A stretch of 64,000 nucleotides of DNA from Pristiophorus japonicus (taxonomy: Eukaryota), in NCBI RefSeq assembly GCF_044704955.1, contig NC_091984.1:146320001-146384000 (forward strand). The letters run 5' to 3'. A program made the translations under genes and the position numbers. This document shows positions 9,781-62,923 of the stretch, piece after piece. The notes beneath the pieces were generated by a model. The model was not told where the DNA came from, made no database searches, and worked only from the letters and a program-made list of their open reading frames with translations. Each line of letters opens with the position of its first letter. The first letter of the stretch is position 1.

Positions 9781-10109
9781 GCCGAGGGAAGACACCACCC
9801 ACGCTGACCCTGCTGCCCCCCTCCCCGGAGGAGGTCACGACCAAGGGCACTGCCACCCTGGTGTGCCTCGCCGATCACTTCTACCCCGATGCGGTGGAGG
9901 TGGAGTGGAAGAAGGACGGGGCGACCATTTCGGCCGGGGTCCAGACCAGTGACTACCTGCGAGCTTCGGACAACACCTACAGTGTCAGCAGCCTGCTGAC
10001 CCTCTCTGGCTCCGACTGGGAGTCCAACGCCAGCTTCTCCTGCAGCCTCACCCACGAGAGCCTCTCCTCTCCCCTCAGCAAGGGCATCAGGAGAGCAGAA
10101 TGTGCGTAG
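9781..10109 (+). CDS. IGKC: Immunoglobulin light chain constant exon, kappa / type III (NS4-like), intact
   Basis: Polypyrimidine acceptor ...CTCCCTTTCAG ends at 9780, phase 1; (x)RGKTPPTLTLLPPSPEEVTTKGTATLVCLADHFYPDAVEVEWKKDG...TYSVSSLLTLSGSDWESNASFSCSLTHESLSSPLSKGIRRAECA*; C1-set Cys/Trp/Cys and penultimate interchain Cys. Confidence 0.95.
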
Positions 10110-13460: not shown

Positions 13461-15504
13461 ACGGTCTCTACCCTCCCCTTTCCCCCGCCCCCCCGAGCTG
13501 CTCCCAAGCCTCGCTCCCTCCCCTCCCTCACTCCTGCCCTCCTCACACTCCATCCCTCCTTCTCCCTCCACCCAATCCCAACCCTCCCATCCATCACCCT
13601 GCACTCCCTCCCCACCTCCGTGCCCCCCTACCTCACATGCCCCTCCTCCCCCCCCCATCCCCCCGTCCCTCCCAAACTGGAGTAGCCCATTCAGCCCCTC
13701 GAGCCTGCTCCACCATTCAATGAGATCATGGCTGATCATTTATCACAACTCCACTTTCCTGCACTGTCCCCATATCCCTCGATTCCCTTAATATCCAAAA
13801 ATCTATCGATCTCCGTCTTAAATATACTCAACGACTGAGCCTCCACAGCCCTCCGGGGTAAGGAATTCCAACGATTCACTACATTTTCTGAGTGAAGAGG
13901 TTTCTCCTCATCTCAGTCCTAAATGGAGGACCCCTTATTCTGAGACTGTGACCCCTGGTTCTAGACTCCCCAGCCAGAGGAAACATCCTCCCTGCATCTA
14001 CCCTGTCAAGCCCTGTCAGAATTCTGTATGTTTCAATGAGATCCCCTCTCATTCTTCGAAACACTAGAGAGTATAGGTCTAGTCTACTCAATCTCTCCAA
14101 AGGACAATCCCCTATCCCAGATGTCCGTCTGATGTGTCAGCGTGTTTGTCACACGTGACGGAGCAGACAGCAGGAGTTCCACCAGCAACACAGGACGTTA
14201 CCTCAGTGCCCGACCCACTTTCCCCATCCACTTACCACATTCTTACAGGTAAACGGGCTCAGCACCTGCCCTCGGCCGGTGAAATGTCTCCCCTCTACAC
14301 CACAGGCTGCCCGTCATCTTTTCCCCATCTCACTACTGAAGGCACTACCTCTGGCTGGGGCACAGCTCCCCTCCCCAAGTGGGCTCACTGTCCCAGTGTG
14401 AGCCGAGAGACTGAGCTCCCAAGTGGGCTCACTGTCCCAGTGTGAGCCCAGATACTGAGCGTGTCAGGCTAATCGACCATGAGGTTTCAGCCGTGGCTCA
14501 GTCACTAGCACGCTCGTCTCTGAGAAAAGGAAGAAAGACTAGCATTTATATAGCGACTTTCACAACCGCCAGACATCCCAAAATGCTTTACAGCCAATGA
14601 AGTAATTTTTGAAGTGTACTCACTGTCGTAATGTCGGATATGCAGGAGCCAATTTGTGCACAGCAAGCTCCCACAAACTGCAATGTGATGATGACCAAAT
14701 AACCTGTTTTTGTCATGTTGATTGAGGAATAAATATTGGCCAGGACACCGCAGTGGGATTTGAACCCTCAAATTCTGACTCAGAGACTAGGGTGCTACCA
14801 ACCGAGCCACTGGCTGACTCCATTCGGCCCATCTTGTCCGCGCTGGCCGTCAAAGAGCTATCCAGCCTAATCCCACTTTCCAGTTCTAGGTCCGTAGCCC
14901 TGTAGGTTACGGCACTTCAAGTGTCTATCCAAGTACTTCTTAAACCACCCCCACCATCCTCTGGGTCAAGGCATTTCATTGGAACATAACAACATAAGAA
15001 TTAGGAACAGGAGTAGGCCATCTAGCCCCTCGAGCCTGCTCCACCATTCAACAAGATCATGGCTGATCTGGCCGTAGACTCAGCTCCACTTACCCGTCCG
15101 CTTCCCAGAACCCTTAATTGCCTTATTGGTTAAAAATCTATCTATCTGTGATTTGAATACATTCAATGAGCTCGCCTCAACTGTTTCCTTGGGCAGAGAA
15201 TTCCACAGATTCACAACCCTCTGGGAGAAGAAATTCCTTCTCAACTTGGTTTTAAATTGGCTCCCCCATATTTTGAGGCTGTGCCCCCTAGTTCTCGTCT
15301 CCCCGACCAGTGGAAACAACCTCTCTGCCTCTATCTTGTCTATCCCTTTCATTATTTTAAATGTTTCTACAATATCACCCCTCATCCTTCTGAACTCCAA
15401 CGAGTAAAGACCCAGTCTACTCAGTCTATCATCATAAGGTAACCCCCTCATCTCTGGAATCAGCTGAGTGAATCGTCTCTGTACCCCCTCCAAAGCTAGT
15501 ATAT

Positions 15505-16950
15505 ACTTTTTAAAAAAGGAGGGAGAGAGAAAACAGGGAATTATAGACCGGTCAGCCTGACCTCAGTCGTGGGTAAAATGATGGAATCAATTATTAAGGA
15601 TGTCATAGCAGCGCATTTGGAAAATGGTGACATGATAGGTCCAAGTCAGCATGGATTTGTGAAAGGGTAATCATGCTTGACAAATCTTCTGGAATTTTTT
15701 GAGGATGTTTCCAGTAAAGTGGACAAAGGAGAACCAGTTGATGTGGTATATTTGGACTTTCAGAAGGCTTTCGACAAGGTCCCACACAAGAGATTAATGT
15801 GCAAAGTTAAAGCACATGGGATTGGGCGTAGTGTGCTGACGTGGATTGAGAACTGGTTGTCAGACAGGAATCAAAGAGTAGGAGTAAACAGGTACTTTTC
15901 AGAATGGCAGGCAGTGACTAGTGGGGTGCCGCAAGGTTCTGTGCTGGGGCCCCAGCTGTTTACATTGTACATTAATGATTTAGACGAGGGGATTAAATGC
16001 AGTATCTCCAAATTTGCGGATGACACTAAGTTGGGTGGCAGTGTGAGCTGCGAGGAGGATGCTATTAGGCTGCGGAGTGACTTGGATAGGTTAGGTGAGT
16101 GGGCAAATGCATGGCAGATGAAGTATAATGTGGATAAATGTGAGGTTATCCACTTTGGTGGTAAAAACAGAGAGACAGACTATTATCTGAACGGTGACAT
16201 ATTAGGAAAAGGGAAGGTGCAACGAGACCTGGGTGTCATGGTACATCAGTCATTGAAGGTTGGCATGCAGGTACAGCAGGCGGTTCAGAAAGCAAATGGC
16301 ATGTTGGCCTTCATAGCGAGGGGATTTGAGTACAGGGGCAGGGAGGTGTTGCTACAGTTGTACAGGGCCTTGGTGAGGCCACACCTGGAGTATTGTGTAC
16401 AGTTTCGGTCTCCTAACTTGAGGAAGGACATTCTTGCTATTGAGGGAGTGCAGCGAAGATTCACCAGACTGATTCCTGGGATGGTGGGACTGACCTATCA
16501 AGAAAGACTAGATCAACTGGGCTTGTATTCACTGGAGTTCAGAAGAATGAGAGGGGACCTCATGGAAACGTTTAAAATTCTGACGGGTTTAGACAGGTTA
16601 GATGCAGGAAGAATGTTCCCAATGTTGGGGAAGTCCAGAACCAGGGGTCACAGTCTGAGGATAAGGGGTAAGCCATTTAGGACCAAGATGAGGAGAAACT
16701 TTTTCACCTAGAGAGTGGTGAACCTGTGGAATTCTCTACCACAGAAAGTAGTTGAGGCCAATTCATTAAATATATTCAAAAGGGAGTTAGATCAAGTCCT
16801 TACTACTCGGGGGATCAAGGGTTATGGCGAGAAAACAGGAAGGGGGTACTGAAGTTTCATGTTCAGCCATGAACTCATTGAATGGCGGTGCAGGCTAGAA
16901 GGGCTGAATGGCCTGCTCCTGCACCTATTTTCTATGTTTCTATGTTTCTA
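15505..16950 (+). mobile_element. Relatively young CR1 LINE 3' portion with a 344-codon uninterrupted RT reading frame
   Basis: ORF 15677-16711: [31 protein letters not shown]; TTTCTATG tail. Confidence 0.92.
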
Positions 16951-18800
16951 TACTTCCTTAAATAAGGTGACCAAAACTGCACGCAGTACTCCAGATGCGG
17001 CCTCACCAATACCCTGTACATTTGCAGCAGGACCTCCCTGCTTTTGTACTCCATCCCTCTCGCAATGAAGGCCAACATTCCATTCGCCTTCCTGATTACC
17101 TGCTGCACCTGCAAACTAACTTTTTGGGATTCATGTACAAGGACCCCCAGGTCCCTCTGCACCGCAGCATGTTGTAATTTCTCCCCATTCAAATAATATT
17201 TCCTTTTAGTGTTTTTTTTTTCCAAGGTGATGACATCATATTTTCTGACATTGTATTCCATCTGCCAAACCTTAGCCCATTCGCTTAATCTATCTAAATC
17301 TCTTTGCAGCCTCTCTGTGTCCTCTACACAACCCGCTTTCCCACTAATCTTTGTGTCATCTGCAAATTTTGTTACGTTACACTCTGTCCCCTCTTCCAGG
17401 TCATCTATGTACATTGTAAACAGTTGTGGTCCCAGCACCGATCCCTGTGGCACACCACTAACCACTGATTACAACCCAAAAAGAATCCATTTATCCCAAA
17501 TTTCTGCTTTCTGTTAGCCAGCCAATTCTCTATTCATGCTAATACATTTCCTCTGACCCCGCGTACCTTTATCTTCTGCAGTAACCTTTTGTGTGGCACC
17601 TTATTGAATGCCTTTTGGAAATCTAAATACACCACATCCATCGGTACACCTCTATCCACCATGCTCGTTATATCCTCAAAGAATTCCAGTAAATTAGTTA
17701 ACATGATTTCCCCTTCATGAATCCATGTTGCGTCTGCTTGATTGCACTATTCCTATGTAGATGACCCGCTATTTCTTCCTTAATGATAGCTTCAAGCATT
17801 TTCCCACTACAGATGTTAAACTAACCGGCCTATAGTTACCTGCATTTTGTCTGCCCCCTTTTTAAAACAGAGGCGTCACATTAGCTGCTTTCCAATCCGC
17901 TGGTACCTCCCCAGAGTCCAGAGAATTTTGGTAGAGTATAACGAATGCATCTGCTATAACTTCCGCATCTCTTTTAATACCCTGGGATGCATTTCATCAG
18001 GACCAGGGGACTTGTCTACCTTGAGTCCCATTAGCCTGTCTAGCACTACCCCTCTAGTGATAGTGATTGTCTCAAGGTCCTCCGTTCCCACATTCCCATG
18101 ACCAGCAAATTTTGGCATGGTTTTTGTGTCTTCCACTGTGAAGACCGAAGCAAAATAATTGTTTAAGGTCTCAGCCATTTCCACATTTCCCATTATTAAA
18201 TCCCCCTTCTCATCTTCTAAGGGACCAACATTTACTTTAGTCACTCCTTTCCGTTTTATATATCGGTAAAATTTTTTACTATCTGTTTTTATGTTTTGCG
18301 CACGTTTACTTTCGTAATCTATCTTTCCTTTCTTTATTGCTTTCTTAGTCATTCTTTGCTGTCGTTTAAAATGTTCCCAATCTTCTAGTTTCCCACTAAC
18401 CTTGGCCATCTTATACCCATTGGTTTTTAATTTGATACTCTCCTTTATTCCTTGGTTATCCACGGCTGGTTATCCCTTCTCTTCCCGCCCTTCTTTTCAC
18501 TGGAATATATTTTTGTTGAGCACTATGAAAGAGCTCCGTCCAGTCCTCCACTGTTCCTCAATTGTGCCACCGTTTAGTCTGTATTTCCAGTCTACTTTAG
18601 CCAACTCTGCCCTCATCCCACTGTAGTCCCCTTTGTTGAAGCATAGTACGCTCGTTTGAGACACTACTTCCTCACCCTCAATCTATATTACAAAATCAAC
18701 CATACTATGATCACTCATTTCGAGAGGATCTTTTACTTGGAGATCGTTTATTATTCCTGTCTCATTACACAGGACCAGATCTAAGATAGCTTGCTCCCTG
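16951..18800 (-). mobile_element. CR1 LINE ORF2 fragment (its 3' end lies at about 14985-15505)
   Basis: ORFs 16932-17465, 17954-18463 and 15080-15493. Confidence 0.85.
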
Positions 18801-21254
18801 CTCCCTTCCCCTCACACACCCTCGAAACCTCCGACCAATTACTTTAAATCTATGCCCCCTGGTTGTTGACCCCTCTGCTAAGGGAAATAGATACTTCCTA
18901 TCCACTCTATTTCAGCCCCTCATAAGTTTATACACCTCAATAAGGTCTCCCCTCAGCCTCCTCTGTTCCACGGAAAACACCCCCAGCCTATCCAATCTTT
19001 CCTCATGGCTAAAATTTTCCAGTCCAGGCAACATCCTCGTAAATCTGCCGATGTGCAATTGGTTGTAAAGCACCTTGGGATGTCCTGAGGTGGTGAAAGG
19101 CGCTATACAAATTCAAGGCTTTCTTTCATTGAAGTGGGAGGGCCCTGATCCTGACCCTCACCCATTGTCCGCGCACTCTGACCTTCCAGGAGGTCACGGG
19201 ATCATTGGGAGCAGTGACCCTGTCTGACCTCGGTATTTTGAGGCTAATTGTTGCCTCACCCTTGACCTCACCCCGGTGCTGGGCAGCAAGCTTTTAAATA
19301 CAATCTAGAAGCTTCTACACCGTCACCCAACATGAAGCCTTGCTGAAGTGTGTTTATACAAGTGTGCCGCAATATTCCCGGATAAAGTTCTCCCGATCTG
19401 TGTGTGATCTGAGCTTTCTCACTGCTGAGCCTGTTTCCCCTGTATCCACCCATCAACAGTTCGAGCTTCCTGCCAGTGAACAGCGTCTTAACGGGACACT
19501 CAGTCTTTACCGACTCTTACTGTTAACCATTTCAGTGCTGAATGTGTGCCAACCATGCACTGCAGATGTTTATACAATAGGATTTTGAGTATCAGCCATG
19601 GCTCAGTGTGTTGCACTCTTGCCTCTGAGTCAGAAGGTTGTGGGTTCAAGTCCCACTCCAGGGACTTGAGCACAAAAATCTAGGCTGACACTGCAGTGCA
19701 GTGCTGAGGGAGAGCTGCACTGTTGGAGGGGCCGTCTTTTGCATGAGACGTTAAACCGAGGCCCAGTCTGCCCTCTCAGGTGAATGTAAAAGATCCCAGC
19801 GCACGATTTCGAAGAAGAGCAGGGGAGTTCCCCCTGGTGTCCTGGTCAATATTTATCCGTCAAGCAACATGACAGAAGAACACATTATCACCACCCTCTG
19901 AGTGAAGATGTTTATCCTCATCTCAGTTCTAAATGGCTGACCTCTTATTTGGAGACTGTGACCCCTGGTTCTAGACTCCCCAGCCAGACGAAACATCCTC
20001 CCTGTAAAGCCCTGTCAGAATTGTATATGTTTCAATGGGATCCCTTCTCATTCTTCGAAACTCTAGAGAGTATAGGCCTTGGAACTTGCGGAACCAGGCG
20101 GGTAGATGGAGTTCAGATACAGATGAGCAATGATCTGATTGAATGGGGGAACAGGCTCAAGGGGCTGATTGGCCTCCTCCTGTTCATTGTGTCCAGCAGC
20201 AGCTGTGTACCTCTCCGCAACCTCATCTTGACTTTTATCAGTCGCATCAGAGCCTTGATTCCCTCACCAGGGTGCTGGTGTTTCAAGATCAATGTCCAGC
20301 TGATCGATGCCATGAGTCAGACTCAGTGAGCGCTGTCAGAGGATGGAAAGGCTGCTCTAACTGCAGCCTTGTTCTAATGCATTTGGGGCGGGGCAACAAG
20401 GCAAGGGAATATACAATAAATGGGATGGTACTGACAGGGGTGGAGGAACGGAGGGACCTTGGAGTGCATGTCCACAGATCCCTGAAGGTAGCAGGCCAGG
20501 TCGATAAGATGGTTAAAAAGGCATACGGAATACTTGCCTTTATTAGCTGAGGCATTGAATACAAGAGCAGGGAGGTTATGCTTGAACTGTATAAAACACT
20601 AGTTAGGCCACAGCTAGAGTACTGCGTGCAGTCCTGGTCACCACATTACAGGAAAGATGTGATTACAGAGGAGATTCACGAGGATGTTGCCAGAACTGGA
20701 GAATTTTAGCTCTGGGGAAAGATTGGATCTGCTGGGGGTGTTTTCTTTGGAACAGAGGAGGCTGAGGGGAGACCTTATTGAGGTGTGTAAAATGATGAGG
20801 GGCCTAGATAGAGTGGATAGAATGGACCCATTTCCCTTAGCAGAGGGGTCAACAACCAGGGGGCATAGATTTAAAGTAATTGGTGGAAGGTTTAGAGGGG
20901 AGATGAGGAAACAATTCTTCACCCAGAGGGTGGTGGGGGTCTGGAACTCACTGCCTGAAAGGGTGGTAGAGGCAAAAACTCTCACCACATTTAAAAAGTA
21001 CTTGGATGTGCACTTAAAGTGCCGTAACCCACAGGGCTTCGGACCCAGAGCTGGAAAGTGGGATTAGGCTGGGTAGCTCTTTGTTGACCGGCGCGGACAT
21101 GATGGGCCGAAATGGCCTCCTTCCGTCCTGTAATTTTCTGTGATTCTATGATCGTGCTGGTGGTGTTGACCACTTTAAAAGACGCAGCATACATTTTATT
21201 GAAACTATTTCCGTTCCCGGTTTCCCCACTGCCAATAATTGGATCAATTGATGC

Positions 21255-25100: not shown

Positions 25101-28100
25101 GACTGAGCAGAAATAAACTTAAAACTATTAAAAAAACAAATAATAGCCTGGCCTACATCAGTTAGGCCATAATTTGTGGATTCGTTCACCCCACTGAGGG
25201 CGAACACCGTCGATGGGCCATTAATGGTCTTAAGTTTTCAGCTCAGTCAGCTGTGGCTCAATGGGCAGCACACTCACCTCTGAGTCCAAAAGTTGTAGGT
25301 TCAAGTCCCACTCCAGAGACTAAGCTCCGAAATCTAGACTGACAGTCCCAGTGCAGTACTGAGGTAGTGACGCACTGTTGGAGGAGCTGTCTTTCAGGTG
25401 AGAGATTAAACCGAGGCCTCGCCTGCCCTCTCAGGTGGGTGTTAATGATCCCATGCCACTACTTTGAAGAAGGGTCGGGGAGTTCTGCCTGGTGTCCTGG
25501 CCAATATTTATCCCTCAATCAACATCACAAAATCAGACTGGGGATGAAATTGCCCCGCTGTGCACCTACCATTAGTGCCTCCAGGGGCCACTAAGGAGAT
25601 GTGACAGTGTTTTCCCCGGGGAGGTGGGGACAGCTACCAGCTCCCGTGGGATTTTGCAGAAACACGCAACGGAGAACGTCCCATGAGCCGTGTCTGTGCC
25701 AGTCCTGAGGGTCACGAACCGGTCCGCACTTCGCTGGCGAGGTGAAGCTTACTGCGATGTGCGCGTCGCCATTTGATTTTGCCGAATTACCGGTCGGGCC
25801 TTTCTGTGCCAATGTGGCGGGGTCGGTGCTGCGATGGTGCAGCCCAACACTCGCCCCCTCGAGCCCACTCCCAGGGGAAGTGCAGTGCACCACATTGCGC
25901 TCCACTTCCTGTCAGGGGCCGTGACCTCAATTTCGCTTCCGGGGCAGGACTTCAGCGTGGGAAAAGTTACTGCACCATCCGGGGCAATATGCAATTTGGG
26001 CACATTATTTGGTCATAGTCACATGTGGGAGCTTGCTATGCACAAACTGTCTGTCGTGTCTCCTCCATTACCGCAGTGACTACACTTCAAAAATACTTCA
26101 TTGGCTGTAAAGCGCTTTGGGACGTCCTGAGGTGGTGAAAGGCGCTATTTAAATGCAAGTCTTTCTTACCAATTCAGCTCAACATCTTTGAAACCCAAAC
26201 CCGCGGACAGTGACGGACAGGTAAAGACCCTGTGGTCCATCCAGCCCGTCCCACACAATTGTGATACCTTGAGTATCACAGTATAGACTCTCCACCCCAC
26301 CCAAAACTACCTGATCTCCTGGGAGAGGCGAAAAACCAGGGAAAAAACCCATTGGGGGAAATAAATCTGGGAAACTCCTCTCCGACCCCCGCCCCCGCCA
26401 CCAGGCGATGGAAACTAGTCCAGGAGGTCACTGTGGCCCTGAATTCCCTGCAGTAACTACCTTCTGTAAGTGGTGATCTACGCACCGGCCACAAACAGGT
26501 CCTGCTCTCGCTTATGTACACCTCATGGATTTAAAATTACAAGCTTTCCCCACAGTGTCAAGTGCTGCAAATACTGTGTTACATTATCAGGGTTATATTC
26601 TCACTGTCTGTCTTTGTAACAACACTCGCTATATAAATGCAAGTTGTTGTTGTGTTCAGGGGCCGCTGTATCTGGCTCAGGCTTCTTATCCATCCCCCCT
26701 TCCCTTCCCCTCCATTGGGGGCCGTGCCTTCAGCTGCCTGGGCCCTAACTCCCTGCTCCCTAAACCTCTCTGCCACTCCACCCCTCTCCTCTTTTAAGAT
26801 CTCCCTTCAAACCCAATCTGTGACTCTCCCTCCCAGCCCCTCCCCCTTTGGCTCAGCACCGCTTTGACCAGATTACGCCTCTGTCAGCTGCCTCGGGATG
26901 TTGTTCTAATGCTCCAGTTGTACAGCAAATCAGGTTGTTGCTGCTGAACCTGGTGGCAGAGCGTCTCTGTGTAGATATACCCCGTGCACCGAGCTCCGCG
27001 GTGAGGCCTCCCACAGTGGAATGGCCTGCCGATGCTCGCTGCAGTGCGGAGTGGCTACTGACCTGCCAATCGGTCTGAGACACCGCCTCACGAGCGGACA
27101 AGGAGATACACGCTGAAATCCATCATCAAATGACACGTGGGGAACTGGAAATTATTCTGCAAACCTGACTGGAGGTTTTGTACAAACAGGTTTTACAAAC
27201 CAATCAATTGAGTGACACAGAAATTGTCCATAAATTTGGTCTTTTCAGAATCAACATCGCCCCCTTTTGGTATGAAGACAGCACTGACAATTTCCCTCAC
27301 AATTTGACTGAGCTGCAATTTTCAATGTCTCCTTACGTGGCTCGCTGTCAATCTTTATTCTATAACGCTCCTGTGAAGTGCTCGGGGAGTTTTCCTGTGT
27401 TAAAGGTGCTGTATAAAAATTGCTGTTGTTGTTTGTTCTAAGTTAGCTGTTCCAACTGAGGTCGGGATATGACTCACAGCTCAGACTGTGCGGCATCCAG
27501 TGATGCAATGTTGTATCGTGGGTTCAAGCCCCACTCCAGGGACCTGAGCGTAAAATAAAGACATATACCACTGTGCAGTCCTGAGGGAGTGCTGCACTGT
27601 CAGAGGGGCAGTACTGAGGGAGTGCCGCACTGTCAGAGGGGCAGTACTGAGGGAGTGCCGCACTGTCGGAGGGGTGGTACTGAGGGCGTGCCGCACTGTC
27701 GGAGGGTGTGCGTGTGTGCATTGGGAAATTTCAGTCCTAGTCACACAGCAATTGTTGGCAACGGTCTCTGATGAAGTCCATGTAGCCCCTGTTGGGTTCC
27801 CCTGGATTATTCTCAGTTACTGAGGAAGTCTCGGCAGATCCAATATATGGGAATACCGATCGCAGTGTTGACCGACTGGACCTGGTGACCTGCAGCAACA
27901 CCTGGACCCTCCGATTCCCCCCTTGGCCAAGTTTCCCAGCACACTGAGCGCTTCAGTCCTCACTTTATCTCACGGCATCTCAGAGCGGTTGAATCGTTGC
28001 ATGGGATTTGTCTGCAAACAGTTGGATGGTGTCTGCTCTCAACTGGATTATGTTCTTACAGAGGCTCGACAGCGCCTCCTTCTGGTTCTCCTTGTTCCCC

Positions 28101-31100
28101 CACAACAACAACAAAAACAACAACAACAACTTGTATTTATATAGCGCCTTTAATGGAGTGAAACATCCCAAGGTGCTTCACAGGAGTACTATGGGATACA
28201 AATTTGACACCTAGCCGCATAAGTAGAAATTAGTGCTGGTCAAACAGGTCGGTTTTAAGGGGCGTCTTGAAGGAGGAAAGAGAGGTAGAGAGGCAGAGAG
28301 GTTTAGGGAGGGAGTTCCAGAGCTTGGGGCTCAAGCAACAGAAGGCACGGCCACCAATGGTTGAGCGATTATAATCAGGGATGCTCAGGAGGGCAGAATT
28401 AGAGGAGGCAGACATCTTGGTTGGTTGTGGGGCTGGAGGAGATTACAGAGATAGGGAGGGGTGAGGCCATGGAGGGATTTGAAAATAAGGATGAGAATTT
28501 TGAAATCAAAGGCGTTGCTTAACCGGGAGCCAATGTAGGTCAGCGAGCACAGGGGTGATGGGTGAACAGGACTTGGTGCGAGTTAGGACACAGGCAGCTG
28601 AGTTTTGGATCACCTCTAGTTTACGTAGAGTAGAATGTGGGAGACCAGCCAGGATTGCATTGGAATAGTCGAATCTAGAGGTAACAAAGCATGGATGAGG
28701 GTTTCAGCAGCGGATGAGCTGAGGCAAATGCGGGGACACGTGATGTTGTGGAGATGGAAATAGATGGTCTTAGTTATGCTGCGGATGTGTGGTCGAAAGC
28801 TCAGACTAATCAACGTGACCGTCACTTTATGAGACCAGTAATGGGCTCCAATTGTAATGTTGCCCAGGCCCATGACACACAGAAACTGGACAAGTGTAGA
28901 GCAAACACCCCAACAATCTGCTCACCAGCGTGTCTGTGAGCTGCAGCTGTGAAACCCGTGGAGATTTGAACAGCTCTCCGAAGGAGGAAGCCACGGTGAT
29001 TGGCTGACAGTCTGGGACGGTAAGGATCGGAGCTGCCTGCCCTTCCACAATGCCCGGCAGGCTGAGGCCAGTGTATTTCACCATTGCTCTGACCGGCAGG
29101 ACAGCCTCCTTGTCGGACTTGCCCAGGTCCATCATCTGGTCCCATCCCCCACTTTTCACCGTGTCCTTACCGACTGTTTTATTATTGGTCGGAGCCAGTG
29201 GGTCCTTTAGTGCCCCACACAGTCCATGCCCATCTCTGCTTCTCCATGTTTCACACCCAGCTGAGAAATCTCTCTGGTTGGATTTGCTGTGGGGAGCAGT
29301 ACCATTGAGCAGAGAAACATTAACACAGGGGTTGAGATGAATGAGCAGGGCGCAGAATAACACAGGAATAATGTAGTCACTGCCTCTGCCAACTCGGGCT
29401 TAGTGTTCAGACAGCAGCCAGGGATCGAAGGGTTAAATAGATCGAAGCTCTCTCCTCGTTGCTCTCTCAGGCACAAATGCACAGTCGTAGCACTTTGCTG
29501 TGATTGGTCCACCCCTGCGGTTTCTGTGTTGCCATGGTTTCCATTGTGAGGCCAGGGGACATGTGCCCTCAGTGGTGATGTGTCCCGCGGGGGTCATGTG
29601 CCCATATAAGTCCTGCCCGCTGTGTGTATCAGTTTAAGGTGAGTGTTGGGGATGAATGCCCAGACCTGAGATACAGGCGAGACGGACAAGGCAACATTCA
29701 CATCCCTGGGCAGCCATGTTGGATTGAGCAGCTGTTTCTTCCTAATAGACAACCCTCCACACCACAGACTCTCAAAGTCCTTGTGGCAAAAGGTGTAGAA
29801 ATGGGAGTGTCCCACAGACATTTCCAACAGCATTGACCCAAATTGGGATTTTCATGTGTCGGGGATTGAAACTGTTTAATGACGTCATGAGGAAGTGGTT
29901 GTGACATCAGAGCATTTTGTTGTGACATCAGAGCGGGCCATTGTGACATGTGTTCCAGTCTTCACCCCTTAAAATGGCCATCTATTGCCGACCAGCCCAG
30001 GTTTCTCCCCCACATATCCTCCCTGCTTTCCTCCTTCGGCCTCGAGAGAGAAAGCTCAGATCACACACAGATCGGGAGAACTTTATCCAGGAACATTGCG
30101 GCACACTTGTATAAACACACTTCAGCAAGGCTTCATGTTGGGTGTCGGTGTAGAAGCTTCTAGATTGCATTTAAAAGCTTGCTGCTCAGCACGGGGGTGA
30201 GGTCAAGGGTGAGGCTACAATTAGCCTCAGTGTACCGGGGTCAGGCAGGGTCACTGCTCCCAATGATCCCGTGACCTCCTGGAAGGTCAGAGTGCGTGGA
30301 CAATGGGCGAGGGTCAGGATCAGGGACCTCTCACTTCAATGAAAGAAAGCCTTGAATTTATATAGCGCCTTTCACAACCTCAGGACATCCCAAGGTGCTT
30401 TACAACCAATTGCACACAGGAAGGTTTACGAGGATGTTGCGAAGACTGGAAAATTTTAGCTATGAGGAAAGATTGGATAGGCTGGGTTTGTTTTCTTTGG
30501 CACAGAGGAGGCTGAGGGGAGATTTAATTGAGGTGTATAAAATTATAAAGGGCCTAGATAGAGTGGATTGGATGGACCTATTTTCCTCAGCAGACTGGTC
30601 AACAACCAGGGCATAGATTTAAAGTAATTGGTGGGAGGTTTGGAGGGGATTTGAGGGGAAATGTCTTCACCCAGAGGGTGGTGGGGGTCTGGAACTCACT
30701 GCCTAAAAGGGTGGTAGAGGCAGAAACCCTTAGCACATTTAAGAAGTACTTGGATGTACACTTGAAATGCCGTAACCCACAGGGCTACGGACCCAGAGCT
30801 GGAAAGTGGGATTAGGCTGGATAGATCTTTGTCCGCCGGCGTGGACACGATGGGACAAATGGCCTCCTTTCATGCTGTAAATTTCTCTGATTCTACGAAG
30901 CTCCAGACTGCAATGAGATCATGACCAGATCATCGGTTTTAACTATGTTAGTTGTGGGATAAATATTGGCCAGGACACTGGAAAGAATCCCCTTGTCCTT
31001 CCAATCATGATTATATGAGCTTTCATGCCCACCTGAGTTAAATTTAGCGTAGTTATGTAAAAGGACAAAGATAGAGCAGGAATAAAGGTTCTCAATTGCA

Positions 31101-33269
31101 GAAAGGCCCATTTTACTAAACTGAGAGGTGATTTAGCAAAAGTGGGCTGGAAACAGCTACTTGAAGGTAAATCAGTGTCAGAGCAGTGGGAGGTATTCAA
31201 GGGGGAGATAGTTAGGGTTCAGAGCAAGTATGTTCCCACAAAGGAAAAGGGTGGCACTCCCAAATCTAGAGCCCCCTGGATGGCAAAGGGCATACAGGGT
31301 AGGATAAGGCAAAAAAGGGAAGCTTGTGTCAGATACCCAGAGCTAAATACTGCAGAAAGCCCAGAGGCATATAGGAAGTGCAGGGGTGAAATTAAAAAGG
31401 AAACTAGGAATACAAAGAAAGGGCATGAAAAAATATTGGCAAGTAAAATCAAGGAAAACCCAAAGATGCTTTGTAAATACATAAAGAGCAAGAGGATAAC
31501 TAAGGAAAGAGTTGGGCCGATTGGAGACCAAAAAGGTAACCTGTGTGTGGAGGTGGAAGATGTGGGTATGGTTGTAAGTGAATACTTTGCATCTGTCTTC
31601 ACAGAACAGAGGCACGATGCAAGCATTGTAATTAAGGAGAAGTATGAAATATTAGATGTGATAAACATAGTGAGAGAGGAAGCATTAAGGGATTTAGCTT
31701 CTTGGAAAGTGGATAAATCTCCAGGCCCAGTTGAAATATATCCCAAGCTTTTAAGAGAAGCAAGGGAGGAAATAGCGGAGGTTCTGACCATCATTTTCCA
31801 ATCATCCCCGGCTACAGGTGTAGTGTTGGAGGACTGGAGGACTGCTAACGTGTACCTTTGTTTAAAAAGTGAGAAAGGGATAGACCGAGTAATTACAGGC
31901 CAGTCAGCCTAACCTCAGTGGTGGGAAAATTATTGGAAACAAATCTGAGGGAGAGGATAAATTGTCATATAGAAAGGGACGGATTAATCAAGGACAGTCA
32001 GCATGGATTTGTTAGTGGAAGGTTGCGCCTGACTAACTTGATGAATTTTTTGCGGAGATAACAAGGAGGGTCGATGAATGTTGCACCTTTGATGTTGTCT
32101 ACATGGATTTTTGCAAGGCATTTGGTAAAGTCTCACATGGCAGAAAAGTTAAAAGCCCAGGGATCCAAGGGAAAGTGGCAAGTGGGATCCAAAATTGGCT
32201 GAGTGGCAGTCTCCCACTCTGTCTCCGTCTCTCGCTCTCCCTTCCCCACAGACTCCCAGGTGTAGCACACTGAAATGCAGAGTAAACCTCCCTGTGCCCT
32301 GCCCCACCAATGGATGTTAATCCTTGACCCCAGAGCATGCCTTCTCCTGGAGTAAGGCCCCATTCCCACAGTGGCCATCCCTTTGCCTCTCTCAATACAC
32401 TGGCTGTTTATTGCCCAATTAAGGGCCGTTCTGTGCTGTGGGCCTATTCTCAGTGGGGACCGGTTTGGACAGAAAGCTCATTTCATGAAGGCTCAACAGA
32501 GGGAGGAGATCCTCACCCCATCAGTGTGAGCTGGAGTGACAGGACAGGGTCTGACCCACTGCCCCATCCTGTCTGCTCAGAACATCTTCGAATCCCTTCC
32601 CCTCTCCTTCCCCTTCCATGGCCCGGCTCCAGGTCAGGGTGTGCCAATGATCCAAAATTTGCACCAGGAAGGGTCCGCACTCCACGTCGACCATGGACTC
32701 CATATCCCACTGGTCCTCCAATCGAGCCCAGACAACATATTTCCTTCCTATTGGTTCGCCAGTAGGGACCAGGAAACATGGCTCCTTCCTATTGGTCCCG
32801 CAATAGGGACCAGGCAACATTGCTCCTTCCTATTGGACCACACTGACCTACTGCCCCTGACATCCCTGCCCTCAGAGTCTGTGCTGAGGGTGAGGTGCCC
32901 TGCGGTCAGTTATCCTGTTGGCAAGCATCTTGAGAATGTTGGCACGTTAAAGGCACCAGATCAATGCAGACTGTGTGTGGATTTCGGGTGTTGATAGTGC
33001 TGGACACAGTGGTGAGGCAGTCGGATATCCTGCTGAGAGAGTCCAGGCTTACACACGTGGAATGGGGAAGTGGGTGAGGTTGGAACGTGCTGTCAGGGCC
33101 CATGGAACTGGACCCCAGCATGAAGCCTTCCTCAGGAGAGGAGAGGGAATGTTCAGAGTCCTGGGCTCCATGTTCCACACCAGGCATTTCCTGTCCCAGT
33201 GAATGAATGAGATGCCAATTTTGTGCCCAGGTTAGGGGCAGTCTAGTGCTGTGGAAAACTAGATTTAAG

Positions 33270-35640
33270 TAATGCCCCTCTTTAGAAAAGGAGGCAGTCA
33301 AAAAGCAGGAAACTCTAGACCAGTTAGGCTAACATCTGTAGTTGGGAAAATGTTGGAGTCCATTGTTAAAGAAGCAGTGGCAGGAGATTTGGGAAAGCAT
33401 AATTCAGTCAGGCAGAGTCAGCATGGATTTATGAAGGGGAAGTCATGCTTGACAAATTTGTTGGAATTCTTTGAGGTTGTAAAGAACAGGGTGGATAAAG
33501 GGGAACCAGTGGGTGTGGTGTATTTGGACTTCCAGAAGGCATTTGACAAGGTGCCACATAAAAGGTTACTGCGCAACATAAAAGTTCATGGGATTGGGGG
33601 TAATATATTAGTATGGTTAGAGGATTGGCTAACTAACAGAAAACAGAGAGTCGGGATAAATGGTTCATTCTCAGGTTGGCAATCAGGAACTAGTGAGGTG
33701 CCATAGGGATCAGTGCTGGGACCTCAATATTTACAATCTATATTAACGACTTGGATGAAGGGACTGAGTGTAATGTTGCCAAATTTGCTGATGATACAAA
33801 GATGGGAGGAAAAGCAATGTGTGAGGAGCACACACAAAATCTGCAAAAAGACATCGACAAGCTAAGTGAGTGGGCAAATATTTGGTAGGTGGTGTATAAT
33901 GTTGGAAAGTGTGAGGTTATGCCCTTTGCCACAAATAATCATTGAGCAAGTTATTATTTAAATGGAAACAAATTACCAAGTGCTTCAGTACAGCAGGACC
34001 TGGGGGTCCTGGTGCATGAAGAACAACAGGATAGTATGCAGATACAGCAATTGATCAGGAAAACAAATTGAATCTTGGCCTTTATTGCAAAGGGGATGGA
34101 GTATAAAAGCAGGGAAGTCTTGATACAATTATACAGGGTATTGGTGAGGCCACACCTGGAAAACTGCATACAGTTATGCTTTCCATATTTACGAAAGGAT
34201 AAACTTTCAAGCAGTTCAGAGAAGGTTCATAGAAACATACAAACAAAGAAAATAGGTGCTGGAGTAGGCCATTTGGCCCTTCGAGCCTGCACCACCATTC
34301 AATATGATCATGGCTGATCATGCAACTTCAGTACCCCATTCCTGCTTTCTCTCTATACCCCTTGACCCTTGATCCCTTTAGCCATAAGGGCCATATCTAA
34401 CTCCCTTTTGAATATATCTAACAAAGTAGCCTCAACAACTTTCTGTGGCAGAAAATTCCACATGCTCACAACTCTCTGACTGAAGAATTTTCTCCTCAAC
34501 TCGGTTCTAAATGGCTTACCCCTTATCCTCAGACTGTGATCCCTGGTCTGGACTTCCCCAACATCGCAAACATTCTTCCTGCATCTAATCTGTCCAATCC
34601 CGGCAGAATTTTACATGCTTCGATGAGATCCCCACTCATTCTCCTAAATTTAATTGAATATAAGCCTAGTCGATCCAGTCTTTCTTCATTTGTCATTCCT
34701 GTCATCCCGGGAATCAGTCTGGTGAACCTTCGCTGCACTCACTCAATAGCAAGAACGTCCTTTAGGAGACCAAAACTGTACACAATATTCAAGGTGTGGC
34801 CTCATCAAGGCCCTGTACAACTGTAGTAAGACTTCCCTGCTCCTATACTCAAATCCTCTCGCTATGAAGGCCAACATGCCATTTGCCTTCTTCACCACCT
34901 GCTGTACCAGATGTGTCATTGAGCAAGAGGCGCTTCAGGTGCCTGGACAGGTATGGAGGCGCACTTCACCACTCACCAGCGAGGATGTACAGGATAATCG
35001 TGGTGTGCTGCATTGTGAAAAACATAGCACAGCAATGAGGACTATTTGTGCAGGAGGAACCAGTAGCTCAGCACTCCTCATCTGATCTGCATTCCAATGA
35101 AGTGGAGGAGGACAAGGAGCAGGAAGAGAAAGAAGAAGCCACCAAAGTCACCACTGGGGTGATTCCGGGGATGAGGGGATTGACTTTTGAGGAAGGTTGA
35201 GTCAGTTGTGCCCTTGCTCATTGGAATTTAGAAGAATGAGAGGTGATCTTATCGCAACGTATAAGGTTATGAGGGGGCTCGACAAGGTGGTTGCAGAGAG
35301 GATGTTTCCACTGATAGGAGAGACTAGAACGAGGGGGCATGATCTTAGAATAAGGGACCACTCATTTAAAACTGAGATGAGGAGGAATTTTTCCTCTCAG
35401 AGGGTTGTGAATCTGTGGAATTCGCTGCCTCAGAGACCTGTGGAAGCTGGGTCATTGAATAAATTTAAGACAGCGAGCGACAGTTTCTTAACCGATAAGG
35501 GAATAAGGGGTTATGGGGAGCGGGCACGGAAGTGGAGCTGAGTCCATGATCGGATCACCCATGATCTCATTAAATGGTAGAGCAGGCTCGAGGGGCCATA
35601 TGGTCTCCTCCTGCTCCTATTTCTTATGTTCAATATGTTC
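33270..35640 (+). mobile_element. CR1 LINE ORF2 fragment with nested minus-strand CR1 (about 34230-34905)
   Basis: ORFs 33272-33706, 34075-34317, 35197-35541; 34529-34738 on minus strand. Confidence 0.85.
34905..35140 (+). mobile_element. PIF/Harbinger (HARBI1-like) transposase C-terminal fragment
   Basis: TRCVIEQ / [34 protein letters not shown] followed by an acidic tract; matches the Harbinger RFRCLD..GG.L..SP....I...C..L.N motif. Confidence 0.7.
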
Positions 35641-37245
35641 TTAAAGTGAGGAGGAGTGGGACTAAATGGGTAATTCTTTCAAAGAGCCGGCACAGGCATG
35701 ATGGGCCGAATGGCCTCCTTCTGTGTTGTAAGATTCTAGGCTGTGAACGCGGTTCACAGTTTTCTCCCGTGTCATTAACAAACGTACAGCTGTGACAACC
35801 TCCCTCTTTCACTTCCTCTGTGGGTGAAGTTTCATTCTTCCGATCTGACAGTCTCTTCAGTTATTTTTTGCACGGGGGATTTCTGCTGCGGTCTGAGTCT
35901 CTAATAATAACCGTCCAATCAGGCAGAATAACAGCAGCTCGGACCGGCTCGGACAGCGGACCCAGGCTCAGTACTGACCCTGCAACGTCCTCCTCACCAA
36001 CATCTGGGGACTTGTGTCAAAAGTGGGAGAGCTGCCCCACAGACTAGTCAAGCACCAGCCTGACATTGTCCTACTCACAGAATCAGATCTTTCAGCCAAT
36101 GTCCCACAGCCCACCCCTCACACCGCACCCCCCCACCCCCCGAATCCCGTGAAAAATAAACAGGAACTCTTTTGAAGAAGAGTCTGTTCTGAGATTCTGG
36201 GTGTGAGAGATTCTGTGCTGAGAAAACAATCACTATCACTACAGAAAAAGTACTTGGTAAAATGATGGAACTAAAGGTGGACAAATCCCCTGGACCTGAT
36301 GGCCTGCATCGTATGGTCTTAAATGAAGTTGCTGCAGAGATAGTGGATGCATTGGTTGCAATCTACCAAAGTTCCCTGGATTCTGGAAAGGTCCTAGCGG
36401 ATTGGAAAACTGCAAATATAACGCCCCTATTTAAAAAAGGAGGGAGACAGAAAGCAGCAAACTATAGACCAGTTAGCCCAACATCTGTGGTTGGGAAAAT
36501 GCTGGAGTCCATTATTAAGGAAGCAGTAGCAGGACATTTGGAAAAGCATCATTCAATCAAGCAGAGTTAGCATGGTTTTATGAAGGGAAAGTCATGTTTG
36601 ACCAATTTGCTGGAGTTCTTTAAGGATGTAACGAGCAGGGTGGAAAAGGGGGAACCAATGGTTGTGATGCATTTGGATTTCCAGAAAGCATTCAATAAGC
36701 TAACACAAAAGATTACTGCGCAAGATAAGTTGGCCCCTCGAGCCTGCTCCGCCATTAAATAAGATCATGACTGATCTGATCATGGAGTCAGCTCTACTTC
36801 CCTGCCCGCTCTCCATAACCCTATATTCCCTTATCGCTCAAAAATCTGTCGATCTCCGCCTTAAATATATTCAATGACCCAGCCTTCACAGCTCCCTGGG
36901 GCAGAGAATTCCATAGATTTACAACCATCTGAGAGAAGAAATTCCTCCTCATCTCAGTTTTAAATGGGCGGCCCCTTATTCTGAGACTATGCCCCCTAGT
37001 TTTAGTTTCCCCTATGAGTGGAAATATTCTCTCTGCATCCACCTTGCCGAGCCCCCTCATTATCTTGTATCTTTCAATAAGATCACCTTTCATTCTTCTG
37101 AACTCCAATGAGTATAGGCCCAACCTACTCAACCTATCTTCATACGTCAACTTCTCATCCCTAATTGCCCTTGAGAAGATGATGGCGAGCCGCCTTCTTG
37201 ATCCGCTGCAGTCCCAAAGTGCTGTTATTGAGGGGTATCACTCAA

Positions 37246-37604
37246 GTGTGTGGGTTTATCACTCCATTGGAGGCACTGAGGCTGATGAACACCGTAAACC
37301 AGAGGCAATCGTATTGGAGGGCAACTATTAGAAAAGGAAGATTGAGGTTGTAATTAAAGAATATCATAAATGGAGGAACTATTTTAAAAAGAGATCACAC
37401 AAGAATAGAGATGATGATTTGTCCAGCCTGGAAAACGAGGATATCATTGCAAAGAGTGTGGAAAAATGGTCAAGTCAAATATAACAAGATTCAGTCCCCA
37501 TGGAGGAGGGGGACACAATTCTCTGCGACTTAGAATACCTTCTCTCCGATATCTCGGATACGCCGTTCATCATGACGCAGCAGACAAAGCCATGGCCAAA
37601 TGCA
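37246..37604 (+). pseudogene. MLXIPL: Processed pseudogene fragment of ChREBP (Mondo family), N-terminal glucose-sensing region
   Basis: VCGFITPL/fs/GTEADEHRKPEAIVLEGNY*KRKIEVVIKEYHKWRNYFKKR...LLSDISDTPFIMTQ; one frameshift, two stops, no introns. Confidence 0.88.
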
Positions 37605-37689
37605 GGCTGGGGCCATTAGAGGGAGCAGCACCTGCTGATGCACTGTGGGCAGGTACAGCAGGAATGGCAATGTCAGGACGAAGGAGCGG

Positions 37690-38040
37690 CAATAGTTTGT
37701 AGAATGATGTGATCGGTGCCCAGGAGAGGCGAGGGCCCGGGGACAGCACGGGCCAGCCCACATTGTTATATGTGTGCGCACTAGGTCCATGCAGCAGAGC
37801 TGGTCTCTGGTCGTCTTGGTTAATCCTTGCCACTAGACCAAGACCTAGCTCTTTCAAGCCCGTGTAGTGGCTGATGTGCAACGGCCACCACACGTTAAAA
37901 AAAGTCCCTGCACAGACATCTTCCACCCTTCAGGATGTAGTTTGGGATCCGGAATAGCAATGAAATACCTGTGAACTCATCCCTTTTCGGCGTGGAAGCA
38001 AGTCATCCTCATTTCGAGGGACTGCCTATGATGATGATGA
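37690..38040 (+). mobile_element. RTE-tailed non-autonomous retroposon (second, longer copy at about 58480-59150)
   Basis: Shared CAGCACGGGCCAGCCCACA...GGAAGCAAGTCATCCTC...(ATG)n tail like the RTE 3' end. Confidence 0.65.
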
Positions 38041-39817: not shown

Positions 39818-40178
39818 TGATAGATAATTCAAACTGGTTGCATTCAGACAGGCTGTGAAAATTCACAGACACCAAGTCAGAGCTGCTATGTGAGTGGGAG
39901 CATGTTGCATTAAGTCATCAATCAACTTGACATTTTAGGACTTTGGGTAGCGAGCCAATTAAAAGGTTAAAAGACGATTAATTAAGCCAATAAGGTCAAA
40001 GAAGGCGAGTTCTTTTCTGTAAATTGATCCAGGTATAAGTACAGCCATTTTGACTATGTGATATCAGAAGGACAAAGACCTGGCTTAAAGCCAAGAGCTT
40101 CTTACTGCTGCCAAAAATAAAGTGACATTAAAACTACAATCGGAGTTCGTATTTCATTGGAAATTAAGAGATCTAACA
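39818..40178 (+). repeat. ERV 5' LTR (361 bp)
   Basis: TGATAGAT...ATCTAACA terminal inverted repeat; two CCAAT boxes, TATAAG, AATAAA at 40116. Confidence 0.95.
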
Positions 40179-40182
40179 ATTT

Positions 40183-40200
40183 TGGTGTCACGAACAAGAT
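40183..40200 (+). other. Primer-binding site, tRNA-Ser(CGA)-like
   Basis: TGGTGTCACGAACAAGAT versus recalled tRNA-Ser(CGA) complement TGGCGTCACGAACAGGAT (2 mismatches). Confidence 0.7.
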
Positions 40201-40467
40201 CGCTGAGGGAAGAAACTGAATTTTGGACATCGGACCTACATACTGGGGTAAGGGCTCCTCTTTATAAAAGTCCTCAGTCAAAAGTCTAAATTCGCCTCTC
40301 CTTCTTCGTGATTCCAAAAGCCTCCGGTTTGCGAACCCTCCAGTTGGTAGTCGGTTCGAGGTCCCATAGACGTCTAAACTTCGGCGTTGTGTTAGTTAAT
40401 TAATCACCGACCTATTGATCGGCTAGAAAGCCTATGACTCGAGACTCCAGTAAAAAAAATCAGTATT

Positions 40468-42029
40468 ATGGCAGCAGGAGATAAGAGCAAAGAATTGCCT
40501 ACAACTGTTAAAGATGGGCAAGCACCACCTGAGGTTTCGCTAGATGAAATTCTCGAACAGTTGAAAGAATACATGGAGCAACAATTCAATTTATCTAAAA
40601 CCTATATTAAGATCGAACAAAAGTACGGAACCTCCAAAGGACAATGGTCCTTGGACGAGATTAAAAGGGTCTGGGGAAAAACGATCCGTATGAAAAATAA
40701 AGAGCGAACTAGATGGTCCCTAGCCGTTATGGGAACGATCCGAAACTGGAATGAAATTATAATGCGTTCCCAACCTGATCGAGAACTGACCAGTACAAAG
40801 GATCAATTGCAAGCTGTTTGTGCACAGCTGCGACAGAAAAAGCTTGAACTTGAAAAGCTGGAAGCGGAAGTTAAAGATCTTAAAGGTGAAATTAAAGAAT
40901 GGAAAAAATCATTAGGTCAAGAGACAGTAATAGGAAAAGGAAAATGTATCGGTCAATTCCCAGGGTACCCATGTTTGGATAAATTAAAAGCGCAAACCCC
41001 AAGACACGACCGAGGAATCGATACGAATTCTGAATCCTCCGACGATACAGGGTCGGAGGATGAAGAATTAGGGGTGCGCTTTGCCCCATTTAAAAAAAGA
41101 CGAGTTGTAGTCAAATCAGAAGAGACTGCGGATGAGGGCGGAACCAAAAAAACGAGGAAAAGGATGTACGAAAAATACTTGGTTCATGATCCGGCAGACC
41201 CAGAGAAAATTGATAAATGGTCCAAGGAATTGGCCAATCCAAAGAAAGGGGGAGTGAAAACGTGGGACCAATTGGACCGCTTAAGAAATATATATCAACT
41301 TCATCCCTGGGACGGAGTACAAATTTTGACCATAATGGTGCCAAAAACACAGGGAAGAAAATTGCACGACAAGGTAGAAGAAGCTTTGGGGCAGGATAAG
41401 CAAGAATTAGACACAGGGTGGGAGGTGATTAAACACTGGCTGCAAGCCTTCAGTCCAGCTAAGACAGACTGGGGAAAAATTGCAGCCTGCCAACAGAAAG
41501 GAACAGAGGAGGTCCTGGAGTATGACGAGCGGTTTAGATGCACGTGGCTGGAACATTCAGGTATGAATAATACGGATGAGGAAATGGATGAACAAGTGTT
41601 TGGACCCCTGAAAGCAGCTTTCGTGGCAGGTCTAAAGCCAGAACTGTCCAAAATGCTTAACGTAGTGTTACCGGACTGGGAAGGTCGAGGAACTACCTTT
41701 GCAGCATTGGTGGATCGATGTAACCAATTAGATCGGTATATGGGAGCTAAAGTCCGAGCTGTACAGAATATGGGATAGAAATCCCAGGATTCCGATAAAC
41801 AGTTAATGGGAAAATGACCCGGAAAATGTCATTATTGTGGGAAAGAAGGTCACTGAGCCAAGAAGTGCAGGGCAAAACAGAAAGGTCGTGGCTGGGGAAG
41901 AGGACGCAGCCAGGGATACATTCAGCCAACAAACCAGGCTTGTCACAAGCTAACGACCTCATAGAAGTGTTTAAGCGACTGACAATACAACAACAGAAGG
42001 AGTTACTTGGGATAGCAAAAAACAATTAG
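40468..42029 (+). pseudogene. gag: ERV gag: 436-codon open part, then in-frame stops and a single CCHC zinc knuckle
   Basis: MHR-like CQQKGTEEVLEYDERF, AFVAGLKPEL; CHYCGKEGH*AKKC at 41827-41868 in the same frame. Confidence 0.9.
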
Positions 42030-45000: not shown

Positions 45001-45465
45001 AGGACAAGTAGAACGAATGAATCGAACTCTGAAACAACAGCTTGCCAAATATCACCAAGAAGGAACATCATGGCCCCTGGCACTACCAATAGTGTTATGT
45101 AGCATTCGGGCAACCCCGAACAGAACTACAGGTCTAAGCCCATTTGAAATTATAACAGGAAGACCCATGTCGCTGCCAGGAACTATCGATTTACGGAAAG
45201 CTGATGTTCACTTAATGAGTGACACTTTGTTATCATACTGTCAGAACTTAACCAATGCTATTAGTTCTGTTTCCCGACAGGTATTGGCAGCTTGGGAGTC
45301 TGGGTGTATGTGAAAAAATTGCATAAAGAACCTTTGGGTGCCAAGTGGGAGGGACCTTATCAAGTGTTATTGACCACTCAGGCAGCTGTTAAAGTCCAAG
45401 GAAAGAAAGCCTGGATCCACGCTTCACACGTTAAACGAGCACCCATAACTGAAGCTGAAATCTAA
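42020..45465 (+). pseudogene. pol: ERV pro-pol (protease, RT, RNase H, integrase); two in-frame stops and one frameshift
   Basis: LLDTGA; LPQGFHNSP; QYVDDILL; FTDGSS; YTDSRY; H-x3-H...C-x2-C; SDQGTHF; GQVERMNRTLK; WEGPYQV; stops at 44462 and 44966. Confidence 0.95.
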
Positions 45466-45489
45466 TAAGGACAATTACTTTTTGCCAAA

Positions 45490-46841: not shown

Positions 46842-47104
46842 GGGAAAGTTGTTTACTGGTTGAATTAAGATATTGATTTGGATTAAATTGGAATAAGGTT
46901 AATTAACCTACTAAAACCAGACTTCCATTGTGGCCACGATGGAATTCGGGTTGGTGTAAATTTGTGTCGAAGCTACTAGTGGCGAAACACATCAACAAAT
47001 TTTAGAAGGAGACACTATTAAAATCTATGAAATTATTTTGTAGAATGTTTAACCAGTGATAGCTGATGTTTTATGATTCAGTTTGTGAAATAATCAAAGG
47101 GGTG

Positions 47105-62368: not shown

Positions 62369-62417
62369 ATGATTTCACCCATCCAGCTGATCTGGCCTCT
62401 GGCATTCTGCGTCGCAG
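62369..62417 (+). CDS. IGKV: Ig light chain V leader exon (L-part1)
   Basis: MISPIQLIWPLAFCVA-G then GT donor at 62418; phase-1 180-bp intron. Confidence 0.93.
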
Positions 62418-62597
62418 GTACCAATCTCTCTCCTTCCATGTTTAATATCTCCCTGCTGTCGATTCTTTCCAACTCTACTGACCAGTGATTGAAGGGCAAA
62501 TGCTGACACTAGAGGAGAGCTCAGTGTCTCGAGCAATCTCTCATTTTACAGCGTCTTTCTGTGACAGTGCTTACTTCAATTTTTTTCCCCATTTCAG

Positions 62598-62895
62598 GTA
62601 TCAGTGGGGACATCATCATGACCCAGTCTCCCCCGGTGCTGTCAGTGAGTGAGGGACAGACTGCAAAGATCACCTGTACTGCCAGTGCATACATTGGTGT
62701 TGCCCTTGCTTGGTACCAGCAGAAAGCCGGGCAGAAACCCTCTCTGCTGATCTATGCGGCAACATCTCGTTTCACTGGAACCTCCAATCGCTTTACCGGC
62801 AGTTACCAGTCCAACACGTTCACCCTGAGCATCAGCAACGTGCAGAGCGAGGATGTCGCAAACTATTACTGTCAGCAAGGGGAAAGCTCCCTCTA
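62598..62895 (+). CDS. IGKV: Ig kappa-type V exon, germline (unrearranged), open frame
   Basis: TTTCAG acceptor; (G)ISG-DIIMTQSPPVLSVSEGQTAKITC...WYQQKAGQKPSLLIY...EDVANYYCQQGESSL. Confidence 0.96.
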
Positions 62896-62923
62896 CACTG
62901 TGATACACAGCCGGACAAAAACC
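62896..62923 (+). promoter_or_regulatory. 12-spacer recombination signal sequence
   Basis: CACTGTG - ATACACAGCCGG (12 nt) - ACAAAAACC. Confidence 0.95.

Follow-up and report, generated by a model that had tools for sequence, protein, structure and literature searches.

An exonless relic of a kappa-type immunoglobulin cluster, probably carried as a passenger in a repeated block of a shark genome

Described light chain clusters and the locus studied here

The closest described systems to the relic reported here are the kappa (NS4, type III) V-J-C clusters of cartilaginous fish, which we regard as its source (PMC2193156; PMC5192425). In the nurse shark there are about 50–60 kappa genes, a few of them joined in the germline (PMC5192425; PMC2193156), compared with 61 J matches genome-wide in the species studied here, Pristiophorus japonicus. 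Germline V-J joining has been described for nurse shark NS4 (PMC2193156). The joined genes lose only the spacer between V and J, at the recombination signal sequences (RSSs), and keep their exons (PMC2193156). Our relic resembles them in that it records a heritable deletion inside an Ig cluster, and two such V-J joins are found in this locus. Unlike them, it has both breakpoints away from an RSS and has lost its exons. A germline-joined V-J gene was therefore rejected as a description of the relic: its join is not at the V and J RSSs and exons are not kept.

A second likeness is to the mammalian kappa-deleting element (RS), a conserved heptamer-23-nonamer that is used somatically (PMC2188845; PMC6186787). 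The second junction of the relic also deletes C: it links an intron site between J and C that starts with CAC to a position far beyond the 3' end of a C exon. In contrast to the kappa-deleting element, it has no good nonamer, it is fixed in the assembly, and its far site lies in the inverted flank of another cluster. Finally, Ig loci that evolve by birth and death contain truncated pseudogenes and relics carried in segmental duplications, and such relics are usually recognised by a decayed exon. A single origin, neutral-looking decay and a copy number that stems from block duplication are features our relic has in common with these, but it contains no exon at all and can be traced only by its flanks and by LINE lesions. 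Among the entries listed in our literature searches, none describes a shark Ig cluster relic without exons; supplements of genome papers may contain such relics, and passages of PMC12227049 contain nothing relevant.

The window, which is the whole stretch of 64,000 nucleotides analysed here, covers positions 146320001-146384000 of contig NC_091984.1 (C8 below) in a genome of 5.9 Gb. Besides the J matches, pattern searches counted 69 V and 98 C genome-wide. On C8 there are 46 J, 54 V and 76 C, nearly all at 143.3–148.9 Mb, and the kappa locus spans 5.5 Mb. V carries a 12 spacer and J a 23 spacer, with J 1.6–2.2 kb after V in most clusters. The C exon of the window is 77–86% identical to proteins named shark kappa-like, which make up most of its named relatives; its three closest relatives (97–100%) carry an automatic 'lambda-1-like' label. 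We take the parent clusters to be of the kappa type, judging by the names of the C matches and the split V12/J23 spacers rather than by an isotype tree.

Two intact neighbours reach into the window. The tail-to-tail partner contributes an intact kappa-type C exon (9781..10109, plus strand), its V and J lying 1.4–3.5 kb before the window start. The head-to-head neighbour contributes an intact leader, V and 12-spacer RSS (62370..62923, plus strand), its own J lying just past the window end. Between the relic and this V sits an endogenous retrovirus-like insertion (39826-47461) with interrupted frames and two LTRs that are about 95% alike.

Parts and origin of the relic

By order and sequence comparison, positions 30048..36106 on the minus strand are an exonless relic of a kappa-type V-J-C cluster, which we call a ghost. 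Its homology to clusters that lack V and J extends to about 36729. Read along the minus strand, it begins with a locus-specific upstream block that is well kept among clusters and is a candidate enhancer (35643..36106). This is followed by LINE (reverse transcriptase) fragments, a generic repeat (33256..35631), with a second LINE fragment nested at 34232-34908. Two blocks of V flank come next: block B (32928..33256) and block C (32210..32838), whose last part is a GA-rich tract lying about 210 bp ahead of the TATA position. The remainder is J-C intron, first a LINE copy with a locus-private lesion (31036..32209) and then repeat fragments together with the 5' portion (30048-30345) of an intron element that is conserved and specific to the locus (30048..31037), all on the minus strand. 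Beyond the relic, 29093..30045 (to which no strand is assigned) is the distal 3' flank of the plus-strand cluster and partly a low-copy dispersed repeat.

Identity to the upstream flank of the intact V is 96% for 35643-36106, 88% for 32928-33256 and 85% for 32228-32836. The intron pieces 32209-31036 and 31037-30045 match J-C intron positions 6322-7475 and 7929-8914 at 90–91%. Much of this had been described correctly in an initial annotation, made from the letters of the window. It had placed a jump from V flank to intron at about 32208, roughly 200 bp short of the TATA position; indeed the flank ends at 32210, which puts the break about 210 bp ahead of where the intact V has its TATA box, and the intron LINE starts at 32209, equivalent to 6322. 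It had also placed the end of the relic at 30048, about 870 bp before C. The intron does stop there, at the equivalent of 8911 with the C exon at 9781, but the same position is a second junction that the annotation missed. The claimed loss of promoter, leader, V, J and C holds: BLAST on window positions 10201-55000 gave only chance matches of 12–41 nt, and tblastn gave none. With no exon, promoter or RSS among its pieces, the ghost can neither rearrange nor encode a chain. A 283-aa open frame (31061-31909) belongs to the LINE copy and has no Pfam match under 0.001; an Rfam scan of window positions 28000-38000 returned 0 matches.

The annotation had further read 36106-32208 as following the upstream region of the neighbouring V (55041-62090). 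Only about 1.4 kb of these 3.9 kb (35643-36106, 32928-33256 and 32228-32836) has locus-specific homology, whereas the 2.4 kb in between are LINE sequence that is 84–87% identical and stands in another order relative to 55548-55885. The collinear templates are instead clusters of other types. One of them is compact and intact (C8:148.785-148.804 Mb), and in it the pieces occur in the same order as in the ghost. This agreement in order bears out the idea that V-flank and C-intron pieces belong to one cluster unit. Orthologous flanks and intron in cluster order identify the exonless stretch as derived from a kappa cluster. The proposed head-to-head inverted duplication survives as a statement about orientation, but not with the neighbouring V as template. 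In the block B comparison, the copy at 55548 differs from the ghosts by 10.3%, more than any other of the 11 non-ghost copies, and it is not among the nearest in the segment trees, so the head-to-head neighbour was not the template. A fold-back copy from the adjacent plus-strand cluster was likewise considered and rejected: the LINE tree leans that way (7.3–7.8% versus 9–10%), but the other segments do not.

One could also argue that the stretch is a chance string of dispersed repeats, as the initial annotation had itself proposed as grounds for dismissing it, or an artefact of assembly. About 60% of the relic is LINE or other repeat. Moreover, contigs of four DNA runs on 29700-33300 are swamped by LINE, with no piece bridging a junction among the matches listed. 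These four runs of one sample contain 53–56% of the sampled words and may be the source sample, in which case they are not independent. Runs from other organisms contain about a tenth of the sampled words and are uninformative on the presence of the junctions, and there is no RNA run among the matches listed for these words. The patterns, however, are confined to the locus. For a 24-mer taken from the upstream block there are 111 matches in the genome, and of the 100 among the matches listed, 98 lie in the locus or on its unplaced contigs; for an intron 24-mer with 109 matches, the figure is 100 of 100 among those listed. The private LINE lesions named in the annotation behave in the same way, with 47 matches to a 9-nt lesion pattern, 37 of them at the C8 locus and the remaining 10 on unplaced contigs; the intron LINE is thus the orthologous copy. 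The 11 diverged copies, which have their own flanks and give concordant trees, also speak against an assembly artefact. Hence, we regard chance or artefact as vanishingly improbable.

How the exons may have been lost

The ghost is the remnant of one kappa cluster. Its exons were likely removed in two deletions of the ordinary end-joining kind, and the shell was then likely copied, as a passenger without function, in a block of about 110 kb. It would have started as an old minus-strand cluster standing tail-to-tail with a plus-strand cluster. A deletion at junction 1 would have removed everything from the promoter to the intron, and a deletion at junction 2 everything from the intron to the opposite flank. 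A four-part block, composed of a C without V and J, an intact cluster, the ghost and a further cluster, would have been multiplied by unequal crossing-over and was presumably retained for its intact clusters.

Junction 1 (32209..32210, minus strand) connects the GA-rich tract of the V flank to the middle of the intron LINE. It is blunt, without microhomology or heptamer. The initial annotation was right that this junction is not at an RSS, and we see no sign of RAG there. Lost at this point are the promoter, the leader, V, both RSSs and J, along with the start of the intron. Aligning the junction to complete clusters, a check that the annotation had suggested, sizes the deletion at about 6 kb against the compact cluster at C8:148.79 Mb and about 10 kb against the cluster upstream of the window. 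Within the intron piece there is another deletion of 454 bp at 31036, between the two junctions, with 2 nt of microhomology. Junctions in the relic and elsewhere in the locus mostly show 0–5 nt of microhomology or short inserts.

Junction 2 (30045..30048, minus strand) connects the intron, across 2 extra letters, with the distal 3' flank, in inverted orientation, of the cluster on the plus strand that has its C at 9781. It removed the C exon and cuts the conserved intron element. The deleted ends begin with CACTGCT on the intron side and CACTCAG on the flank side (in four of five unbroken copies). For one junction, CAC at both deleted ends has a chance of about 0.001, a coincidence noticed after the fact. 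The retained ends are untrimmed, with 2–3 extra letters. An independent break (L143, C8:146893643) falls within a few letters of the intron side of junction 2 but keeps the other side, and this may be a fragile spot.

The CAC starts, the untrimmed retained ends and the extra letters are what weakly hints at a RAG origin of junction 2, that is, a germline deletion between cryptic heptamers comparable to the removal of C from an intron heptamer by the mammalian kappa-deleting element. Of 36 unbroken copies seen, 35 preserve the intron site, and two out-of-frame V-J joins in the assembly indicate that RAG was probably active in this germ line. Nevertheless, the likeness to an RSS is ordinary. The two sites agree at 8/16 and 9/16 positions, which is reached by 58% and 33% of regional CAC sites, and the intron site has 5/7 heptamer letters. 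The heptamer-23-nonamer of the kappa-deleting type is not found downstream, where 4/7 and 5/9 letters agree, as they do at 33% of CAC sites. CAC occurs at both ends in none of 68 other automatically called junctions and at one end in 7 and 7 of the 68, compared with 6.2 expected; this set is noisy and partly redundant, and in one genuine V-J join it failed to register the V end, which is trimmed. Across the genome there is no signal joint, the extra letters are compatible with TC slippage, junction 1 has no CAC, and the far site belongs, as stated above, to another cluster. RAG inversion was rejected as well, with the reciprocal joint being absent. A RAG deletion at junction 2 is thus very unlikely in our view, and plain end joining is the likelier cause of the deletions. 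If junction 2 were nevertheless made by RAG, germline RAG action would extend beyond V-J joins, with a hint of C-deleting editing in sharks. We have similarly little belief in a bolder version, a kappa-deleting-type pathway in which RAG cuts at the conserved J-C intron CAC, junction 2 is a germline fossil, and an enhancer-only shell was amplified elevenfold among active clusters.

The copies bear on the number of steps. Junction 1 occurs exactly 13 times genome-wide, 11 times on C8, always on the minus strand, and twice on the unplaced contig C1231, and junction 2 is found at the same 13 places. Counting exonless relics genome-wide, as the annotation had proposed, therefore shows that the relic is not a one-off. 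No copy has one junction alone, which weakens the case for two separate events. In a single complex repair, a V-only relic, made up of V flank, V and then the opposite flank, would have had a stretch copied from a J-C intron put in place of its promoter and V, giving both junctions at once. Apart from the joint occurrence of the junctions, this would suit the observation that the flank past junction 2 is unbroken only in five V-only units, with an opposite V flank at the same place. The mapped V-only units, however, lack upstream blocks A and B, which the ghost contains; the ghost intron is a deep lineage nested in no sampled donor; and order and orientation in the ghost are those of an intact cluster. 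We consider a single repair unlikely and continue with the two end-joining deletions.

Copies, neighbours and the question of function

Our segment trees drew on about 1.7 Mb of the 5.5-Mb locus and the flanks of search matches, with sequences included per segment at 75–80% coverage and 80–85% identity. In four of six trees the ghosts are monophyletic (support 0.95–1.0), and two short conserved blocks are unresolved. Ghost copies are about 3% apart and differ by 6–10% from all other clusters sampled; for the resolved segments, mean divergence is 2.4–3.5% among ghosts and 8–9% from ghosts to others. The ghosts on C8 all lie on the same chromosome arm, and the pair on C1231 is nearly identical to two of them, probably representing the other haplotype.

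The neighbourhood is repeated as well. All 11 C8 ghosts have a plus-strand C 18.5–24.3 kb before them, a plus-strand V 22.5–47 kb after them, and a minus-strand C without J 36–40 kb before the plus-strand C. In order, the module of about 110 kb comprises the minus C without J, the intact cluster on the plus strand, the ghost and the plus V. These comparisons show that the ghost arose once and was then copied within a larger module to 11 places on C8. Two related modules have no ghost, and in these the next cluster is missing too. A 3.6-kb LINE insertion at the window equivalent of 31963, common to three related ghosts (C8:147486069-147489660, 143.55 and 145.36 Mb), marks the order of duplication.

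Among non-ghost clusters, divergence is 3.7% in the upstream block and 5.2% in the intron-unique block, compared with 7.5–8.4% in neighbouring blocks. These two non-coding blocks, whose conservation between clusters exceeds that of the sequence around them, lie in the window at 35643-36106, 55041-55504 and 8610-9090. The upstream and intron blocks are candidate shark kappa enhancers, to which the relic draws attention. The upstream block contains a motif (35807..35818, minus strand) that we take to be PU.1/IRF-composite-like and, at 35787-35792, what is presumably an E-box. In the copy at 55330 the PU.1/IRF-like motif has a change that is common to its cluster type.

Could the ghost have been kept as a promoterless enhancer module for the flanking intact clusters? 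It retains the block whose conservation between clusters is strongest, along with a portion of the conserved intron element. All 12 ghost copies that keep the block have an undamaged PU.1/IRF-like motif, and in each of the 11 cases an intact V stands opposite the ghost. Variation between copies tells against it. Among the 11 C8 ghosts, 33/362 sites vary in the upstream block, 28/298 in the intron-unique block and 405/4219 in pooled LINE sequence (Fisher p 0.85 and 1.0). Without CpG sites the conserved blocks vary at 5.7% and 5.6% compared with 8.0% for LINE (p about 0.16), in a test of low power. A 200-bp scan across ghost copies gave no conserved peak. Since copying, the locus-specific parts of the ghosts have varied as fast as neighbouring LINE sequence. 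In addition, the ghost at 144.80 Mb has lost the upstream block, junction 2 cuts the intron element, and every mapped neighbouring cluster has its own copy of the block, itself a putative enhancer. We consider a retained enhancer module quite unlikely. Rates like those of LINE, a lost upstream block in one copy and modules without a ghost fit a passenger, within the limited power of the comparison.

The ghost is real but ordinary: a relic of an Ig pseudogene that has been truncated and is carried along as its block is duplicated. Read as a neutral relic, it marks lineages and shows that the 5.5-Mb kappa locus grew by the copying of blocks of about 110 kb, each with several clusters as well as relics and with both orientations represented, instead of cluster by cluster. 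Exon-based annotation undercounts the births and deaths of such clusters.

It is also one of several kinds of truncated cluster in the locus. On C8, up to 31 of 76 C have no upstream J match and up to 10 of 54 V have no J match; both are upper bounds, and one J missed by the pattern was recovered. A second relic in the window, composed only of J-C intron pieces (13679..19890, plus strand), is present in the ghost modules mapped. The V-J joined kappa genes L201 (C8:148180049-148180464) and L202 (C8:146963971-146964386), both out of frame, are probably germline-joined pseudogenes; V-J spacing of about 264 is also seen on contigs C53 and C1231. C clusters without V and J, at C8:146087929-146094519, 146579619-146587272 and similar places, have upstream flank LINE joined to intron LINE at breaks equivalent to window 6005 or 6261, less than 320 bp from the ghost break at 6322. 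V-only relics with intact RSS and open frame (C8:146563373, 147156763, 145964750 and 159520302) are joined, through several different junctions, to an opposite cluster's 3' flank in inverted orientation, and by their sequence they could serve as inverted extra V donors. Chimeric clusters at C8:146176308-146194704 and 146382599-146400699 have a 16-kb J-C interval with 3'-flank segments. Outside the locus, the 24-mer of the upstream block has single distant matches at C8:114855515 and C10:160542050, which may be orphan pieces.
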